Shown piece by piece: positions 41,066 to 60,895 of a stretch of DNA of 64,000 bases. Below the pieces are notes generated by a model, which had not been told where the DNA came from, searched no databases, and saw only the letters and a list, made by a program, of their open reading frames with translations. Both the position numbers and the translations under genes were made by a program. Each line of letters starts with the position of its first letter. Within the stretch, counting starts at the first letter, position 1. This stretch comes from a virus. Its lineage: Duplodnaviria; Heunggongvirae; Uroviricota; Caudoviricetes. Where the stretch lies: the IMG/VR virus record IMGVR_UViG_3300045988_146577; one strand, written 5' to 3'.

Positions 41066-41449
41066 TAGTCTACATGCAGGTGTATGAGAGCACCTGCATG
41101 TGACATTCATCACATTTTTGAATGTATATACCTTCGGCTGAAAAAGATCTTGATAGGCTGAATGATATTTGTAGGCTTCGCCTCCGAAGAAATTCGGAGG
41201 ATATATGCGACAATTTATAAAAACGTGTGACCTAAGAAATATAGTAGATGATATTGCATGTGATGAAATTAGCAAAAAAGAGAAGAACAAAAACGCCAAT
41301 TAACGCTATCTACCTATAAATCTGAAGAGTTCAATAGGATGCATATCTGAAACACGCCCTCGACAATACCAAAAAGATTTGTCGAGGGCGTCGGGCTTTC
41401 CCTATGTCTGAACGATTAAATTTTACAGCAATTAAATATTTTGTATATG

Positions 41450-53108: not shown

Positions 53109-54209
53109 ATGAGCGAGTCCAAATCGCCGGATGCCCTGAGAGCAATGGTAGCCGGTACGCTGGCTAATTTTCAGCACCCAACCCTGAAACACAACCTGAC
53201 TACGCTTAAAGCGTTACACCATGTTGCGTTGATGGATGACACACTGCATGTCGAACTAATCATGCCTTTCGTGTGGAATAAGCCTTTTGAAGACCTGAAA
53301 GAGCAATGTAGTGGTGATCTGCTCCGTATCACTGGCGCAAAGGCTATTGACTGGAAGCTGTCGTACAACATTGCCACGCTTAAGCGCGTCAAAAACCAAC
53401 CAGGCATTAATGGCGTTAAGAACATTATCGCCGTCAGCTCAGGCAAGGGCGGCGTGGGTAAATCCTCCACGGCGGTAAACCTGGCACTGGCGTTGGCTGC
53501 TGAAGGTGCGAAAGTTGGTATTTTGGATGCCGATATCTATGGTCCATCAATTCCAACCATGCTGGGCGCGGAAAACCAACGTCCAACCTCACCTGACGGT
53601 ACTCACATGGCACCTATCATGTCTCATGGCCTGGCAACCAACTCTATTGGTTATCTGGTCACCGACGACAATGCAATGGTGTGGCGTGGACCGATGGCCA
53701 GCAAGGCGCTGATGCAGATGTTGCAGGAAACTCTATGGCCTGATCTGGACTATCTCGTTCTCGATATGCCGCCGGGCACTGGTGATATTCAGTTGACGCT
53801 GGCGCAGAACATTCCTGTAACTGGTGCGGTTGTGGTAACTACGCCGCAAGACATCGCGCTGATCGATGCGAAGAAAGGCATTGTGATGTTCGAAAAAGTC
53901 GAAGTGCCGGTACTGGGTATCGTCGAAAACATGAGTGTGCATATTTGCAGTAACTGCGGTCATCACGAGCCAATTTTTGGCACCGGTGGCGCACAGAAAC
54001 TGGCCGAGAAATACAACACGCAGTTGTTAGGCCAAATGCCTCTTCATATCTCTCTTCGTGAAGATCTGGATAACGGAACACCAACCGTTATTAGTCGTCC
54101 AGATAGTGAATTTACGGCTATTTATCGTGACCTCGCAGATCGCGTTGCTGCCCAAATGTATTGGCAAGGTGAAGTAATACCTGGCGAAATCGCATTCCGC
54201 GCAGTGTGA
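53109..54209 (+). CDS. apbC: Fe-S cluster carrier ATPase ApbC/Mrp
   Basis: Deviant Walker A SGKGGVGKSS, CxxC (CSNCGHH); AAGGAG RBS; divergent from metG as in enterobacterial chromosomes. Confidence 0.9.
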   Translation: MSESKSPDALRAMVAGTLANFQHPTLKHNLTTLKALHHVALMDDTLHVELIMPFVWNKPFEDLKEQCSGDLLRITGAKAIDWKLSYNIATLKRVKNQPGINGVKNIIAVSSGKGGVGKSSTAVNLALALAAEGAKVGILDADIYGPSIPTMLGAENQRPTSPDGTHMAPIMSHGLATNSIGYLVTDDNAMVWRGPMASKALMQMLQETLWPDLDYLVLDMPPGTGDIQLTLAQNIPVTGAVVVTTPQDIALIDAKKGIVMFEKVEVPVLGIVENMSVHICSNCGHHEPIFGTGGAQKLAEKYNTQLLGQMPLHISLREDLDNGTPTVISRPDSEFTAIYRDLADRVAAQMYWQGEVIPGEIAFRAV

Positions 54210-54672: not shown

Positions 54673-54755
54673 TACATGAAAGAAGCTCACTCAGTGCAAC
54701 TGATCGGTACATAGCACCAGACAAAGGAACGTTATTTTCTCGAACAAGAAAAGGT

Positions 54756-54771
54756 AGAAAACAAATTGTTT
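54756..54771 (+). promoter_or_regulatory. class-1 palindrome fused to terminator hairpin (54772-54792)
   Basis: AGAAAACAAATTGTTT + AAGGCCAC-aacta-GTGGCCTT. Confidence 0.45.
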
Positions 54772-54808
54772 AAGGCCACAACTAGTGGCCTTAATGGAGA
54801 AGGGATGC

Positions 54809-55372
54809 TTATTGGCTATGGCTAAAAATCAAATGAGACACTTCATTTGGTTGTAGCTCGTCAAGATCCGGGGCCACAAAACCTTTTCCGAAAGACTTCA
54901 CAAGTGATTCACCAGCCGCATCATTGTCACCTATTACGCGAAAGTCATACGGCAGCATTGCCAGTTGACGACGTAATCCTGCTGAGAAAGTCGAACCTAA
55001 CAGCGCCCACGAATTTCCGCCCGCGTTGTGCACTGCTGCACTTTTAAAAATCGACTCAGTTATCCATATCGGTCCATCTTTTAAAGGAAGATAGGTTCCC
55101 CATAGTAGCTGTCTGCCGTTCGCTCGTGTGAAATACCGGGCCATCTTCGGATTGCTATGCTGCTTAGGAGCGCCTGGTCTGTATGTCTGATACCCGGCCA
55201 ACATCCCATCAAACCTGTATAGAGGGAACGTAACAACTCCTTCGCTTTCATCGATCCACTGTCTATATGGATGCACATCATGGCGGTAGTTACGAGTTAG
55301 CAAATGAGCTTCCAGCTTTCCATATTTGGTCATAACTTCGCATCCCTCATAACACTTCCCATTTATCACCAT
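54809..55372 (-). CDS. hypothetical protein with TOPRIM-like acidic motifs
   Basis: ITESIF ... GDNDAAGE resembles Glu / DxD TOPRIM signature; start may be M14 (55333). Confidence 0.35.
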   Translation of the reverse strand: MVINGKCYEGCEVMTKYGKLEAHLLTRNYRHDVHPYRQWIDESEGVVTFPLYRFDGMLAGYQTYRPGAPKQHSNPKMARYFTRANGRQLLWGTYLPLKDGPIWITESIFKSAAVHNAGGNSWALLGSTFSAGLRRQLAMLPYDFRVIGDNDAAGESLVKSFGKGFVAPDLDELQPNEVSHLIFSHSQ

Positions 55373-56201
55373 ATTTCTCCATAGCTCTTAGCCAGTAAAC
55401 ATGGCCACTAGGCATAGTGATGTGAGGCTCGCCAAACTCTTCTCCATGCACATCAAAGATGTCCCCAACAGAGAATTGGGGGATTTCTACGCCGTTTTCA
55501 CCTATATGCGTAATTCGTATACGTTTCGGTTGAGATTCTCCCCCTTTGAGCGAGTTGTTCACTGCTCTGGCAATCTTCTCCCGCAATTGCTGCGTTCCGT
55601 GGTACTGAACCGCAATATCCCTCAACTCATTCACCAGTTCTCGAATCTGGTGATCTTTAAGCTCATTATTTGAGTGATGGGTAACAACTCTGGTTAATTC
55701 ACCCTTGTCTTTTGCTCTTACGTATGCAGCTCTTGTGCATTCGACCCATGTATTACCGCCTACATTAACTTCGTAGATTAGGCTGGACTTATCTGTCAAT
55801 TCGGAACAAATACGGACCGTGGTCTGGCAACTAGAGCATTCGCAGTTATCGCGGAAACCGTGGTCTACTGGCTTCGGTTTCACATCATCAACTTTTTCTA
55901 CCCTATTGGAATTTAAATACTTCGAAGCCTTGCTATGCCAATCGCTGGTTTTAGGATCTTGTCCATCCATCAAACGCCAGGCTTCAGCGATTAACTCATA
56001 ACTAGTGACTGTAGCTTCCTGCGCATCACCAATAAGTCGTGTAATCTCTCTTTCAAGCCGACCGCCTAGCTCTGTTTTAGTGCAATGTTCTGACCAATCG
56101 CCAGCCTCAAGCAGCGCGAGAATGCTTAAAATATCGTCCAATAGAACGGTAGTATTATCGACTTCCTTCTGAAACTCACCGGCTACTGATTTATGCATCA
56201 T
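55347..56201 (-). CDS. hypothetical protein (284 aa, Cys cluster CECSSCQ)
   Basis: ORF overlapping upstream and downstream genes (operon). Confidence 0.45.
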   Translation of the reverse strand: MMHKSVAGEFQKEVDNTTVLLDDILSILALLEAGDWSEHCTKTELGGRLEREITRLIGDAQEATVTSYELIAEAWRLMDGQDPKTSDWHSKASKYLNSNRVEKVDDVKPKPVDHGFRDNCECSSCQTTVRICSELTDKSSLIYEVNVGGNTWVECTRAAYVRAKDKGELTRVVTHHSNNELKDHQIRELVNELRDIAVQYHGTQQLREKIARAVNNSLKGGESQPKRIRITHIGENGVEIPQFSVGDIFDVHGEEFGEPHITMPSGHVYWLRAMEKYGDKWEVL

Positions 56202-57274
56202 TCGTCATCCTCATCCGAGTCATCCTCATCACAGGATGAGAGTAGTGGGTTAGTCATTCGCCCTACTTGAGTGGCGTAGCCACGCCGACAGAGATTGCGC
56301 AGCACACTGTATATTTCGAACATCTCGGTTCGTTCATCGCCAACATCAAGCTCAGATGCTATAGCGTGGCATTCAGTCGCGAGAGCCGATATTTTCTGAA
56401 ATAACTCTGCATTATTCACTGTTCGACTCCTGCGGCGTTCTGGTAGTGACATCCAGTGTGTGACATTGCTAATCAGACCATATTCATTAGTTTGAGGATG
56501 GTTGCCGTTAGCGTCTCCGTATTTAAGACTCTCCATAAAGCCATAATGCCTATCACCATTAACGCTCACAAAGCCGTAATAAGCAGGTATAACGCCGATC
56601 TCACACGTAACCAGTAAAGGAAAACTAGTTCTCCAATTTAGCTCGCCAATTACAGGCATTCGCTCACTACAGCTTATCCAGCTATCCTTAATGCCACTAT
56701 CTTGACTCTGAAGCATGGCGGCGCGGCAGGCGTTCCATGCTCTCCAGTTGCGTGACTCAATCCCAGCTGGATAAGGGTCAGAGCTTCCTACGATGCACTT
56801 TTCATCCTCAACCATCCACCGTTCAAAATCCGCTCGGAACTTATCGTTGTCAACCACCGCTGGCTGCGGTAACTTTGGTTCCATCAGTGACTCCAGTTCA
56901 GCAATGCGCTTCTCTGCGGCTTCCAGCTCAACGCGCAGCTTCCCAACCGTTAGCGCAATATCCTCGTTCTCCTGGTCACGGCGTTTGATGTATTGCTGGT
57001 TCCTTTCCCGTTCATCCAGTAATACCAGCACAGTAGCCGGGTTGGCTGCGGCGATGAATTCAGCATTGGCCTGCTGCTCCATTTGGAAATCTTCATCGAA
57101 ACCGCTTTCAGGATGCGCTCCTTCAATTCTGCAAATGGGAATATATCCAGCAGCCTCGCGATGAATTAGTGCATCATCACCATCAAATCTGCCATCTCCA
57201 TATTCTAGCGACCACTCGCCACACGTTGCTTTCTCTGCCTTTTCACGCAGTGCCTGATAGTCAATCTTGCTCAC
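56198..57274 (-). CDS. Ea22-like early prophage protein
   Basis: N-terminus MSKIDYQALREKAEKATCGEWSLEYGDGRFD and DUF551-like C-terminus typical of lambdoid Ead/Ea22-family proteins; acidic tail. Confidence 0.55.
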   Translation of the reverse strand: MSKIDYQALREKAEKATCGEWSLEYGDGRFDGDDALIHREAAGYIPICRIEGAHPESGFDEDFQMEQQANAEFIAAANPATVLVLLDERERNQQYIKRRDQENEDIALTVGKLRVELEAAEKRIAELESLMEPKLPQPAVVDNDKFRADFERWMVEDEKCIVGSSDPYPAGIESRNWRAWNACRAAMLQSQDSGIKDSWISCSERMPVIGELNWRTSFPLLVTCEIGVIPAYYGFVSVNGDRHYGFMESLKYGDANGNHPQTNEYGLISNVTHWMSLPERRRSRTVNNAELFQKISALATECHAIASELDVGDERTEMFEIYSVLRNLCRRGYATQVGRMTNPLLSSCDEDDSDEDDE

Positions 57275-57822
57275 TGGTTGCCTCCTTTGCGAAGCTGTTC
57301 AGCAATACTTACGCATATCTCTGCGCCTCTAATCAGCCCCGGAACGTTCTTGTTTGGCCCAACTTCACCATCAACAAAATCAATCATCGCGTTACGAGCC
57401 ATATCCACGCCCTGCGCACGTACTTCAGCCAGAAAAGCATCGGTGGCTGGAGTTTCTATGCACTGCATTTCATGCAATGTCTGCATGTCCATAAAATCCC
57501 CGTCAGGCTCTGTGATAGTGGCGTTATATGCCGAGTAAATTTTTGACGCTTCATGTGCCAGTTCCGCAGCCTTAGATCGCAATGCCACATTCTCCGCCGC
57601 TAATGCGTCTCTCTGCGCCCGCAACTTCTCAATTTCGGCAGCCATGTAGTAACCAACCATAGCGAAGACGGCAAAAGAGTTGTCTGCCTCATCAGGCGAC
57701 ACTGAGGCCATTAGCAGGCCATCGTAAAAATCGTGACTCCCATTGGTGATCGCCACCGCATAGGAGTCGTGGTTCTCGCGCTTGTGAATGAGAACTACGG
57801 GATTTTCGATTTTGTTACTCAT
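57271..57822 (-). CDS. hypothetical early-region protein
   Basis: 183 aa, coiled-coil middle; translationally coupled to Ea22-like gene. Confidence 0.45.
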   Translation of the reverse strand: MSNKIENPVVLIHKRENHDSYAVAITNGSHDFYDGLLMASVSPDEADNSFAVFAMVGYYMAAEIEKLRAQRDALAAENVALRSKAAELAHEASKIYSAYNATITEPDGDFMDMQTLHEMQCIETPATDAFLAEVRAQGVDMARNAMIDFVDGEVGPNKNVPGLIRGAEICVSIAEQLRKGGNQ

Positions 57823-57893
57823 GTGTTTTTCTCTTCTTTGCTGTTACATAAGCACTACCAAGTGCTGGTTATTTTTCACAAATAAGAAAAGGT

Positions 57894-57909
57894 AGAAAAC
57901 AATTTATTT
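57894..57909 (+). promoter_or_regulatory. degenerate class-1 palindrome fused to hairpin (duplicate of 54756 module)
   Basis: AGAAAACAATTTATTT + AAGGCCACAACTTATGGCCTT. Confidence 0.35.
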
Positions 57910-57960
57910 AAGGCCACAACTTATGGCCTTTATTTATTCATGCCGAAGGATTTGTAGCGT

Positions 57961-58341
57961 CTAATTGCCGGATAAAATGGGGTGAGGTGCTTGCCAGTAG
58001 GCTCCACCGGTCCATGTGAACCCCATGCGAATAAGAGTGTTTATTGCGGCTTTGGTAGACTCCGATTCGACACTGGCTTTTCGAAACTCTTGAACCTCTT
58101 TCGCCAACTTGTATGTAATTGTGCAGGGGACGATTGCAGCCCAGCCTTTCTCATGACTGTTAATGACCATCTGGATGTGACCATCCAGAATAGGTTGATT
58201 AGGCATGTTATTGAAAATGTCTGCCTGTTTTTGAATGTGAAGAAAAAGCCTTGCCAGCTCCATTTGCTCACTACGAGACAAGGGATTATCAAGAGGGCTT
58301 TTTGCAAAAGCGGCTACACGCTGTGCGTCAATGCCAAACAT
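57961..58341 (-). CDS. hypothetical protein (126 aa)
   Basis: ORF coupled to upstream gene (shared boundary 58341). Confidence 0.45.
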   Translation of the reverse strand: MFGIDAQRVAAFAKSPLDNPLSRSEQMELARLFLHIQKQADIFNNMPNQPILDGHIQMVINSHEKGWAAIVPCTITYKLAKEVQEFRKASVESESTKAAINTLIRMGFTWTGGAYWQAPHPILSGN

Positions 58342-59045
58342 CAGCGCACCTCACCATCTTTATGGCTGGAGTTAACTTCCGTCATTAAATGTCTGACGTA
58401 ATCGACAAGAGAGCCGCCTGGTGGAATCTGGCATTCCTCAACTAACTGGAAGTAGATATCCGCTGCATTACGTGTATTGCTACCCGCGCATATTCTTTCT
58501 TCCCGAAGTGCATGAAGCTCGTTGATCAAACGGTCACACTCTCCGTTACGCTGATCCACAACGGCCTCAAGCTCTGCGACGCGTTCACCTGGCGTCTTAC
58601 CTTCTTTGTGTTGGATGGTAACGACGAAATCGCCAATTGCAGGGACGTTGTAATCCAGCTCAAGGTAGTTTTTGGCACCGCTGCGGACGAACTCACCCGC
58701 GAACATGGTGGCGAACATCGCAGAGGCCACTTCGCCGTTGAAAAGTGACTCCAGATCTAACGGAGTCCCGGCATCAAGAGCCTCTTTTGCTGTATCCATT
58801 GCATCCATGAACCGATCAAACTCATTGGCGCGCTTTTCCAGGTTTTTCCATTGCTCGCTCCAACGTTTGGCAACGAAGTCTATGAATGTTTTCGCGGATT
58901 CATCAAAATCCCCCTCAAACTTAACGATGCCTTTATCAATAATGATCTGGCCTACCGCATCCTCTGCATAACCTTTCAATGTAAACTTGAAAGGAAAATC
59001 AGAATGGCCTGTGACGTTAAAATGCTCTAACTGGAGGTTGTTCAT
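58341..59045 (-). CDS. hypothetical protein (234 aa)
   Basis: ORF preceded by class-2 palindrome. Confidence 0.45.
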   Translation of the reverse strand: MNNLQLEHFNVTGHSDFPFKFTLKGYAEDAVGQIIIDKGIVKFEGDFDESAKTFIDFVAKRWSEQWKNLEKRANEFDRFMDAMDTAKEALDAGTPLDLESLFNGEVASAMFATMFAGEFVRSGAKNYLELDYNVPAIGDFVVTIQHKEGKTPGERVAELEAVVDQRNGECDRLINELHALREERICAGSNTRNAADIYFQLVEECQIPPGGSLVDYVRHLMTEVNSSHKDGEVR

Positions 59046-59086
59046 GTGTTTTTCTCTTATCGTTTAGTAACTACATTCTTACACAA

Positions 59087-59109
59087 ATTAGGTAAGTATT
59101 TACCTATCA
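59087..59109 (-). promoter_or_regulatory. class-2 palindrome
   Basis: TTAGGTAAGTATTTACCTATCAT between MTase stop and next gene start. Confidence 0.45.
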
Positions 59110-60792
59110 TTTAACGCGTTTGAAAACGTATACGCTGACTGTGATCCCTGTGTCTTCAAACTCGTTGGTAAACGACTTCCCTCTGGCATAAACGTAATTA
59201 TCCATCGTCATCCAGTCCAGTATTGGCGCAGTGCCCGGCAATACTGCTACAAGACGCCCGCCGACTTTCAGATGCCCCAGCGCAGCCAGCGTGTGCTCTC
59301 TATGACGACCAAGCGAGTACGGCGGGTTCATAACGATTTTGTCGAACTGATAACCTGCGTTGTCCTCAGACCACTTTATGAAGTCGCAGCAAATCGTGTT
59401 CGTATACCCTTTTCCACGCAGGATATCAGCGAAGAGAGGTGCGATTTCTATGCAGGTAACATCTTCCAGATCGGCGTTAATATAGGCCAGAAGATCCCCA
59501 CGTCCGGCTTGAGGCTCCAGCAGCTTCTCACCAGGCTTCAATTCAGTGGCTCTGGCAACGTACTCAGCAATCAAGCGTGGGGTAGGGTAGAACTGGTGTG
59601 ATTTTGTATCCGGTATTAAACCGGTAGCCACAATCGTATTTAGCGTATGGCCGATGTCATACGGGAACTGCCAGTGCTTTTTCTCCTGCACGCCGCCAAT
59701 GAAGCTCAGTGTGCGCTCAAGCTCTTCCACCTGCGACTTCTGGAGAGCTGAATCAGAGAAGTACCATACGCCTTTGTCTTTGCTCAATCGCCCGTCACGA
59801 AGCGCAGTGCGAACCGGCACGGAGATCGTCTTCTGGATTAACCCGAACTGCTTTGGTGCCCGTGTTTTTGGCGCAGTTCGGCATGGCGCGGGAATTGCAG
59901 CAGGCATACTGTAAGCCAGCACCTCATTCAACTTCCAGGCCACGTCAGGATGTATTTCAAAGTGAACGTTGCCGTTCTTGAACATCTTCACGCGCATCAG
60001 ATTTCCATCGACGTTCATCCAGTCACCGGTCTGGCAGTCGTTTGCCCGATACGCAGCTGATAGCACCTCAGCAGTGCGGTTGATGGTAATAAATTCTTTG
60101 TGCGCGAAGAAATGAAGCAAGACACGCAGATCGTCGATGTAGTCCTCTTTGCGATAGTTCACGCTAACGCTGTCCCGCCAGAAATCAGAAATGCAGTCAG
60201 CGATTATCAGACGCTCGCTGAAACCGTTTGTCTTATTTGTCTTGTGCGCAGGACTCAGCGCCTTAAACAAGCCATACACGCGCTCAGAGAGATATTTGTG
60301 CCTGTCATTCAGCAAATTAAGCATCGTGGGTATGACCGTTTCTGCTTTGAACTCCGGTACACCAACGAACTCTTTAACCTTCATCTGGTAGCCGGTTCTG
60401 TCAGTTTTGATGACTTCCTGTTTGCCCTCTATAAACTGCTCGCGCCACTCATCTCGACGGGAAGCTGGCATGATCAGCAAAACGTTAGTCATGTCCGTGA
60501 CCTTCCTCCAGTACTCGGCCCAAATATTCTGTTTCACCCATTCCAGATCGACTTTATCCAACCAACCTCGATTTAAACGCGAGCGATCTTCATCTGGTCG
60601 ATGGTTTAGTCTCAGCAGGCGATTAATCATGTTGTGGCGTTCGTCGCCATAAACGAAGTCGTGAACCTGATACATGAAGGCGATCTCTTTCTCGCACTCG
60701 GCCACAATTTCGTGGATGACGTTCATTTCCTGCCGATAGTCGATAGCAGTGTTTGAGTTGGCATCGTCGATGATGGAAAGGGCTGTATTCAT
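59107..60792 (-). CDS. N6-adenine DNA methyltransferase (C-terminal MTase domain, N-terminal unknown domain)
   Basis: Motif I-like LEPQAGRGDL and motif IV NPPY (IVMNPPYS) in C-terminal third; 561 aa. Confidence 0.75.
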   Translation of the reverse strand: MNTALSIIDDANSNTAIDYRQEMNVIHEIVAECEKEIAFMYQVHDFVYGDERHNMINRLLRLNHRPDEDRSRLNRGWLDKVDLEWVKQNIWAEYWRKVTDMTNVLLIMPASRRDEWREQFIEGKQEVIKTDRTGYQMKVKEFVGVPEFKAETVIPTMLNLLNDRHKYLSERVYGLFKALSPAHKTNKTNGFSERLIIADCISDFWRDSVSVNYRKEDYIDDLRVLLHFFAHKEFITINRTAEVLSAAYRANDCQTGDWMNVDGNLMRVKMFKNGNVHFEIHPDVAWKLNEVLAYSMPAAIPAPCRTAPKTRAPKQFGLIQKTISVPVRTALRDGRLSKDKGVWYFSDSALQKSQVEELERTLSFIGGVQEKKHWQFPYDIGHTLNTIVATGLIPDTKSHQFYPTPRLIAEYVARATELKPGEKLLEPQAGRGDLLAYINADLEDVTCIEIAPLFADILRGKGYTNTICCDFIKWSEDNAGYQFDKIVMNPPYSLGRHREHTLAALGHLKVGGRLVAVLPGTAPILDWMTMDNYVYARGKSFTNEFEDTGITVSVYVFKRVK

Positions 60793-60832
60793 AATTGCAC
60801 CATTAAGAAGTGATTTGTTTAATGGTGCAATT
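60793..60832. promoter_or_regulatory. perfect 13-bp inverted repeat abutting the methyltransferase start codon
   Basis: AATTGCACCATTAA -N12- TTAATGGTGCAATT directly 5-prime of the ATG. Confidence 0.5.
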
Positions 60833-60895
60833 ATTTCAAAAATGAAAAGGTACTAAATAGAAATAAACAGGCAATCCTTCAAATAAAGGCATTGG

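Follow-up and report, generated by a model that had tools for sequence, protein, structure and literature searches.

How is a solitary methylase gene expressed when its start codon is caught in a long perfect inverted repeat, and what does its product do for the element that carries it? The question is raised by a 561-codon open reading frame (ORF) on a 64,000-nucleotide stretch of tailed-phage DNA (IMG/VR record IMGVR_UViG_3300045988_146577), referred to below as the window. An original prediction, made from the letters of this stretch alone, had pointed out the gene and the repeat. The observation is correct and fairly ordinary: an orphan phage-plasmid adenine methylase with a hairpin-masked start. 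The reading developed here combines a self-protective or epigenetic orphan methylase with a translation that is held low by an RNA stem-loop, and this composite is considered reasonably probable.

The gene resides on an element of known type. Over 2.1 kb around it, nucleotide comparison gave 100% identity to the Escherichia coli plasmid pEC7518-111k, 98.7-99.1% to the phage records Cyrano and CMS-2020a, ~90% to Salmonella phage SSU5 and 82-89% to Klebsiella phage-plasmids. Alongside pEC7518-111k and phage Cyrano, ~240 E. coli plasmids reach 99-100% DNA identity, and 251 of the 253 matches in complete E. coli genomes are located on plasmids. Given this identity to known phage-plasmids and the plasmid location of the matches, the window is assigned to an extrachromosomal SSU5-like phage-plasmid of E. 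coli. A reading as integrated prophage is wrong, and the comparison of lysogen and cured strain proposed in the original prediction turns into one of plasmid-bearing and plasmid-free cells. The whole element of ~112 kb was covered by the window together with the remaining 48 kb, taken from pEC7518-111k.

The inverted repeat at the translation start

On the mRNA strand, the region up to the start codon reads AUAAUUGCACCAUUAA-ACAAAUCACUUC-UUAAUGGUGCAAUUAU-G. The arm at 60791-60806 (ATAATTGCACCATTAA), which is 3' in the mRNA, is preceded there by its complement, the 5' arm (60819-60834). The original prediction had given the perfect arms as 13 bp in its title and 14 bp in its text and had let the repeat abut the ATG. 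The repeat is real and is placed at the start codon, but the perfect arms comprise 16 bp, and they run 2 nt into the ATG (60790-60792), taking in the A and the U of the start codon. The GGUG within the 3' arm is the only plausible Shine-Dalgarno (SD) sequence at the methylase start.

The repeat is the longest perfect one in the window (loop ≤20 nt), and the other 48 kb of the element reach 15 bp at most. In 200 dinucleotide-preserving shuffles the longest arm measured 14 bp, and none of the 200 attained 16 bp; the repeat is beyond chance expectation. A second perfect inverted repeat, also with a 12-nt spacer and with 13-bp arms (ACGCCCTCGACAA / TTGTCGAGGGCGT), occurs at 41354-41391 of the window.

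As RNA, the region folds with -19.1 kcal/mol (z-score -5.3 versus shuffles) into a 16-bp stem that closes a 12-nt loop, and the stem is kept when folded in 161 nt of context. The predicted probability of an unpaired SD stays below 0.005 up to 75 °C. SD and start codon are thus predicted to be paired in a stable local helix, as expected for a translation-blocking stem-loop. In an mRNA with both arms, GGUG would pair with CACC and the first two bases of the AUG would be enclosed, which would prevent the loading of ribosomes. Expression would require a removal or opening of the 5' arm. Speculative openers are a transcription start inside the arm at an extended -10-like promoter, a processing by RNase, or a trans-acting factor. 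Whether the repeat acts in this way, as a stem in RNA that holds translation down, is regarded as an evenly balanced proposition.

Other functions of the stem and its surroundings were considered and rejected. An RNA thermometer is contradicted by a stem that is predicted intact above 70 °C. The repeat does not resemble an intrinsic terminator: no U-tract follows the stem and the terminator scan finds none. Rfam gave only noise for a known RNA family; an integron attC site was dismissed because the sequence shows no GTTRRRY core and no meaningful Rfam match was obtained. Leader peptides or translational coupling were discarded as well. In the window, an 18-codon ORF ends 2 nt before the stem, and in SSU5-type elements a 20-codon ORF runs through the 5' arm. 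Both lack conservation, be it within a lineage or between lineages, with loss of start codons and gain of stops. Like hairpins were sought at the IncHI homologs, which have an ordinary layout of terminator, promoter and AAGGA SD and no repeat. In most lineages, a four-codon ORF (ATG GTG CAA TTA TGA, 60781-60795, minus strand) shares the ATGA at the methylase start; the likely explanation is the SD and start sequence read in another frame.

Variation of the upstream region among relatives

The upstream regions of 71 related loci from IMG/VR and phage records were compared, and pairing statistics were obtained on a 23-sequence alignment of the distinct variants. The 3' arm, which holds the ribosome binding site (RBS), is conserved in all relatives, while the 5' arm is not. 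Pairing between CACCA and UGGUG is kept in 20-23 of the 23 distinct variants. In the alignment, 79% of cells pair versus 27-50% with the partner slid, and three pairs show double changes. Long stems occur in the window type and in three further variants (L091 type, L126 and L154; Table 1). Two single C-to-U changes yield G.U pairs, one of them (L103 type) in intact genes. The full 561-codon ORF follows the stem in 9 of 11 window-type and 10 of 12 L091-type loci. Judged by these comparisons, SSU5-like elements inherited the core CACCA/UGGUG pairing from their ancestor, and some lineages associated with E. coli extended it into the long perfect stem.

The gating by a protein-bound operator or a 5' hairpin that the original prediction had offered is accordingly upheld in part: in a transcript with both arms, the hairpin would be very stable and bury SD and AUG, and related lineages with double or wobble changes still pair, but only part of the family has the long stem, and an operator would stand without additional sites.

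Transcription signals

An extended -10-like motif, TGAAATAAT, is a candidate promoter at the outer end of the 5' arm. Its pattern TGn(G/A)A(T/A)AAT (TGnGATAAT or TGnGAAAAT in relatives) is kept in nearly all lineages regardless of pairing, a conservation that was judged by eye in alignments. A -35/-10 consensus scan found no canonical sigma-70 promoter in the window or SSU5 and did not detect the extended -10-like motif.

In SSU5 (L003 4826-4843) and the Klebsiella relatives, AGGGGGCGAAAGCCCCCT and a subsequent T-run form a strong intrinsic terminator, which precedes the methylase start by ~100 nt. Because of this terminator, the methylase gene probably has its own promoter in the short upstream interval, and the extended -10-like element is the best candidate. 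The window lineage, owner of the longest RBS-masking stem, is devoid of a strong upstream terminator. A translational lock would therefore be useful in this lineage. Hypothetically, a logic of two transcripts applies, in which only read-through transcripts would be locked.

Weighing of the proposed stem-loop mechanism

Several results weigh against a translational lock on a gene of value to the element. SSU5 and most Salmonella and Klebsiella relatives hold only the CACCA/UGGUG pairing and a short inner ACAA/UUGU helix (~-6 kcal/mol, z-score ~0); the long stem is therefore not needed for the family to function. Transcripts from the extended -10-like motif, if it is a promoter, would start inside or after the 5' arm, form no hairpin and have a free SD (-2.4 kcal/mol). 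The covariation statistics are modest, as 18-30 of 500 column shuffles match the observed values. L154 and all six C-to-U 'CACUA' variants precede truncated or frameshifted genes, so their changes are not creditable to selection on methylase translation; they fit a template-switch 'correction' of a quasipalindrome, or decay, equally well. Finally, the methylase gene is disrupted in ~14 of 68 sampled IMG/VR loci, about a fifth, and is therefore dispensable.

The foremost alternative places the repeat in DNA. It would serve as an operator, at which a dimeric repressor, possibly the methylase itself by means of lineage-specific N-terminal helices, covers the -10 element, start site and RBS and shuts off transcription, comparable to autoregulated M.SsoII/M.EcoRII-type or C-protein systems. 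The dyad overlaps the extended -10-like motif and would span about -12 to +30 of that promoter, symmetry-preserving changes are equally compatible with a dimer site and with a hairpin, and in SSU5-type relatives the terminator just upstream would leave a 90-nt stretch for the required promoter. These points are countered by the half-site itself, which is unique in the 112-kb element; a tolerance of up to two mismatches adds only one intragenic match. No helix-turn-helix (HTH) or C-protein gene was found among the neighbours, and the N-terminus of the methylase showed no recognisable DNA-binding fold. In SSU5 and Klebsiella relatives the 5' half-site is not conserved, in contrast to the 3' half with the RBS. 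In addition, intact genes include a C-to-U variant that destroys the symmetry of the DNA and leaves the RNA pairing in place. An operator function is thus considered unlikely. A regulon of such operators was rejected, since neither the window nor the other 48 kb of pEC7518-111k has a further copy of the half-site outside the repeat. An IMG/VR scan for the 14-mer yielded scattered single chance matches only and is uninformative.

The repeat might also be devoid of function: a tolerated quasipalindrome, grown from an ancestral short CACCA/TGGTG, which intrastrand template switching would have created and would hold perfect as the DNA replicates. The graded series among relatives, from 5 to 12, 14 and 16 bp, agrees with such an origin, as do the frequent loss of the gene and the doubly changed L154, which precedes a 58-codon remnant where selection on methylase translation is impossible. 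An intact and conserved gene, however, cannot be indifferent to a stem of -19 kcal/mol over SD and AUG, and the large majority of window-type and L091-type loci retain such a gene, in the numbers given above. Long stems are furthermore present in three separate lineages and differ in sequence between them. A tolerated by-product of replication is therefore seen as rather improbable, and the stem-loop acting in RNA is retained as the preferred reading of the repeat.

The methylase protein

The original prediction had placed FxGxG-like and NPPY motifs in the C-terminal third of the 561-aa protein. Both were recovered, as motif I at residues 425-434 and NPPY at 489-492. Motif conservation was scored on 28 aligned homologs with identities as low as 34%. 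QFYPTP (400-405), EPxAGxG (426-432) and NPP(Y/F) (489-492) are invariant across these homologs, and the catalytic residues are present, motifs X, I and IV being invariant or nearly so. The order X, I, IV is that of the gamma class. According to Iyer et al. (2017, PMC5512222), a 'TP' cap such as that in QFYPTP is a feature of adenine methylases of the EcoKI/TaqI-like type, with the DarB clade among them.

Profile and structure comparisons agree on a methyltransferase. PHROG 6263 ('DNA methyltransferase') matches over the full length with an E-value of 1e-299, and the C-terminal 130 residues also match PHROGs of giant phage proteins of 1,200-3,900 aa. In Pfam, DUF4942 (PF13708) scored 74 bits versus a cut-off of 25 (E 2e-20), and a match to N6_Mtase stayed below threshold; the NCBI name for WP_001090447 is 'DUF4942 domain-containing protein'. 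M.TaqI is the top PDB match by sequence and by profile (profile E 4e-4), ahead of further adenine methylases of DNA and HsdM. The top PADLOC models are the MADS mad2 methylase (1e-15) and then Type II methyltransferases (MTases). With hhalign, residues 394-524 align to 81-228 of DarB from phage P1 (94.9% probability, E 4e-8); residues 328-395 align to the pre-MTase region of phrog_9133. In an AlphaFold2 (AF2) model with a mean predicted confidence (pLDDT) of 82, the C-terminal Rossmann domain superposes on TrmN, M.TaqI and HsdM (Foldseek).

No nuclease stands beside the gene here or at the IncHI1, IncHI2 and Pseudomonas-phage homologs. Profile libraries assigned none of the ten flanking ORFs to a nuclease, HTH, DNA-binding regulator or C-protein family; the original prediction, too, had noted that an adjacent restriction endonuclease is lacking. 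The product is very probably a methyltransferase. Its designation as an orphan N6-adenine DNA methyltransferase, already made in the original prediction, is well supported by motifs, profile matches and predicted structure, which point to adenine-N6 of DNA as the presumed target.

A target outside DNA has to be weighed against this assignment. The NPPY/Rossmann core is common to RNA m6A/m2G and glutamine methyltransferases, and the top Foldseek match is TrmN. The protein could accordingly modify RNA or protein, or be bifunctional with a second N-terminal activity (e.g. a nuclease), as a single-chain effector resembling restriction-modification (R-M) systems or acting against defence. NPPY enzymes include tRNA and rRNA as well as release-factor methyltransferases, NCBIfam gave weak matches to Erm and KsgA, the invariant polar residues of the N-terminus are unusual for a mere recognition domain, and DUF4942 also occurs without the MTase domain. 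Opposed to this are the QFYPTP cap, motif I and NPPY in gamma order, the signature of an EcoKI/TaqI-type DNA enzyme; the best sequence-level matches, which are all DNA MTases; the failure to detect any nuclease family or fold; and the family distribution, counted here as purely on mobile DNA. Such a protein is the least probable of the alternatives. A single-chain Type IIG/IIL R-M enzyme, which would have an N-terminal nuclease domain of the PD-(D/E)xK or another kind, was rejected, as no nuclease family, no fold match for residues 1-395 and no C-terminal target-recognition domain (TRD) were obtained.

The N-terminal two-thirds form a module of their own. Residues ~90-395 are the constant companion of the MTase domain, and residues 1-~90 differ by lineage. 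Across the 28 homologs, H183, T185, N186, D221, R223, D262, H277, H281 and N289 are invariant polar residues of the module. As Rossmann-domain matches took over the Foldseek search with the entire chain, residues 1-395 were modelled alone (pLDDT 82); against the PDB, Foldseek returned nothing better than E 0.24. The profile search against the PDB likewise gave no match for the N-terminal part, and no DNA-binding fold was recognised. A phmmer search with the N-terminal 395 residues found 612 representative clusters, nearly all of 500-580 aa and with the region always N-terminal, and the two-part layout recurs in the Pseudomonas phages MR13 and Dolphis and in IncHI2 plasmids. From this constant position and shared layout, the ~300-residue module is taken to be an obligate partner of the MTase domain. 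On other plasmids, DUF4942 also occurs as a separate protein that lacks the MTase domain (hit H64).

No C-terminal TRD is present: the chain stops ~40 residues past the last Rossmann strand, and its additional bulk precedes the catalytic domain. In place of the usual recognition domain at the C-terminus, the N-terminal module presumably supplies DNA binding or target choice. A more far-reaching proposal, which must be called improbable, regards the module as a second catalytic or effector domain of a bifunctional anti-defence enzyme, or the methylase as one of relaxed specificity, toxic enough to need a lock of -19 kcal/mol. The lock would then be bypassed only by starts inside the 5' arm, a promoter-choice switch between a silent read-through mRNA and a translatable short mRNA.

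Proposed role and distribution of the family

The proposed enzyme would be a solitary S-adenosylmethionine (SAM)-dependent N6-adenine methylase of the EcoKI/TaqI/DarB (gamma) type, joined to a DUF4942 module. Family and context suggest that it would methylate the DNA of the element, and that of the host as well, and so provide a shield from restriction in new hosts or an epigenetic mark. The anti-restriction or epigenetic role voiced in the original prediction is plausible by analogy, considering the distribution on mobile elements and the kinship to DarB. A protecting or marking function has about the same chance of being right as of being wrong.

The family is ~540 aa in size, of fixed architecture, and found in phages, IncHI plasmids and chromosomes. 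It is carried by 2,745 PLSDB plasmids, 1,487 of them conjugative. IncHI1 and IncHI2 plasmids harbor full-length copies with ~31% identity, near a Dam-family methylase and without adjoining nuclease. Other carriers are chromosomes across Proteobacteria, ICEs, and phages of Pseudomonas, Vibrio, Aeromonas and others. A literature search for the family, for SSU5/pHCM2-type methylases and for methylomes found no characterised member.

Neighbourhood and exchange of the locus

Every gene in the methylase part of the window is encoded on the minus strand. The flanking accessory genes comprise Ead/Ea22-, Eaa- and Eae-like genes, a primase fragment, membrane 'moron' proteins, TerB/TciA-like and DUF551 genes.

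In pSCMY1 (L284 12001-19000) and a dozen IMG/VR contigs, the methylase gene is cut at codon 157. Loci of the pSCMY1 type contain a complete type I hsdR-hsdS-hsdM system in place of the downstream Ead/Eaa/Eae accessory genes. A Klebsiella relative has its methylase gene cut at ~codon 71, again by hsdR. As these sequences present it, the methylase locus is a hotspot of cargo exchange for defence and anti-defence functions, which sometimes holds a type I R-M system instead.

A small Dam-like 'phage N-6-adenine-methyltransferase' is encoded a few kb past the right end of the window (L002 15778-16371; L279 1833-2426). At 53109-54209 (plus strand) and leftwards, the element carries apbC/mrp and metG (methionyl-tRNA synthetase), housekeeping genes of a host-like kind, with the same annotation in Cyrano and pEC7518-111k. 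A 187-aa ORF (54809-55372, minus strand) matches only an internal part (143-333 of 435) of a phage DNA primase family and looks like a gene fragment beside the variable accessory region.

Table 1. Features of the methylase locus and of related loci. Positions refer to the window unless a locus is named; residues are those of the 561-aa protein.
Feature	Position	Strand	Basis or remark
ORF, 561 aa, ATG start	59107..60792	-	DUF4942 + MTase family, PHROG 6263, WP_001090447
Rossmann-fold SAM methyltransferase domain (predicted), aa 395-561	59110..59608	-	Foldseek, profile-vs-PDB, PADLOC, hhalign
Motif IV NPPY, aa 489-492, catalytic	59317..59328	-	gtacggcgggtt on plus strand; N489, P490, P491 invariant
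Motif I LEPQAGRGDL, aa 425-434, SAM-binding loop	59491..59520	-	homolog alignment
Motif X QFYPTP, aa 400-405, 'TP' helix cap	59578..59595	-	invariant in homolog alignment
N-terminal region, aa 1-394, fold without PDB match	59609..60792	-	AF2 model, Foldseek, phmmer
Pfam DUF4942 match, aa 140-295	59908..60375	-	Pfam and homolog alignment
Perfect inverted repeat, 16-bp arms, 12-nt loop	60791..60834	-	repeat finder; RNA folding, -19.1 kcal/mol
Probable SD GGUG, 5 nt 5' of AUG, within 3' arm	60798..60801	-	pairs with CACC 60824-60827
Extended -10-like motif, candidate promoter	60830..60838	-	overlaps first 5 nt of 5' arm
Small weak stem-loop after upstream gene	60868..60893	-	RNA folding, terminator scan
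R-M replacement loci	L284 12001-19000 (pSCMY1); L146 1501-3343; L283 3501-6894		window equivalent ~54700-60320
Long stem, window type			16 bp
Long stem, L091 type			12 bp; G-C replaced by A-U; intact genes
Long stem, L126			14 bp; further C-G to A-U change and U.G pair; intact gene
Long stem, L154			16 bp; U-A replaced by A-U; dead gene

Significance

The noteworthy parts of the locus are the target sequence of the methylase, the N-terminal two-thirds without known fold in a widespread family, and the easily testable stem-loop. Clinical Enterobacteriaceae often harbor SSU5-like phage-plasmids, and resistance genes can be among the cargo of these elements. If the methylase does pre-protect the phage-plasmid DNA, it would help to explain the crossing of strain and genus barriers. 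One methylome experiment would annotate thousands of genes across the DUF4942-MTase family. The stem-loop offers a clean, mutable test of how a mobile element silences a potentially harmful DNA-modifying enzyme, and the swap of methylase gene and type I R-M cassette at one locus marks a point of exchange between defence and anti-defence.

Comparison with known systems

The P1 DarB and polyvalent proteins share with the methylase the TP-capped helix, motif I and NPP(Y/F), the carriage on mobile elements and the lack of a cognate nuclease (PMC5512222). They differ in several respects. The present protein has no SF2/SNF2 helicase, no giant multidomain context and no sign of packaging into virions. 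Its N-terminal partner of ~300 aa contains DUF4942 and is not clearly LPD36, and DarB has NVPF instead of NPPY. A DarB-like methylase-helicase dyad, with the MTase flanked by LPD36 on its N-terminal and an SF2/SNF2 helicase on its C-terminal side, was rejected, as the protein ends at residue 561 without a helicase and only the MTase core aligns to DarB.

M.EcoGIX and M.BceJIII are promiscuous m6A (N6-methyladenine) methylases from plasmid leading regions, specific for single-stranded DNA (ssDNA) and of the beta class with DPPY (PMC7736820). They provide an analogy as orphan, plasmid-borne enzymes that are silent in the native host and shield incoming DNA from restriction (PMC7736820). However, their substrate is conjugative ssDNA, and the DNA of SSU5-like elements arrives double-stranded, by the phage route. 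A kinship to M.EcoGIX was dismissed: the beta class with DPPY there and the gamma order with NPPY here indicate different families.

Autoregulated Type II MTases and C-protein R-M systems resemble the locus in an inverted repeat at the promoter and start of the methylase. In contrast to them, HTH, C gene and nuclease gene are missing here, and the 5' half of the repeat is not conserved in relatives.

In phage Mu, the potentially harmful DNA-modification gene mom has its start region locked in an mRNA stem-loop, which is opened by the zinc-finger activator Com. At the present locus, no Com-like gene or binding site was identified and the upstream leader ORFs are not conserved; common to both is the translation start region of a DNA-modification gene, predicted here to lie within a stem-loop.

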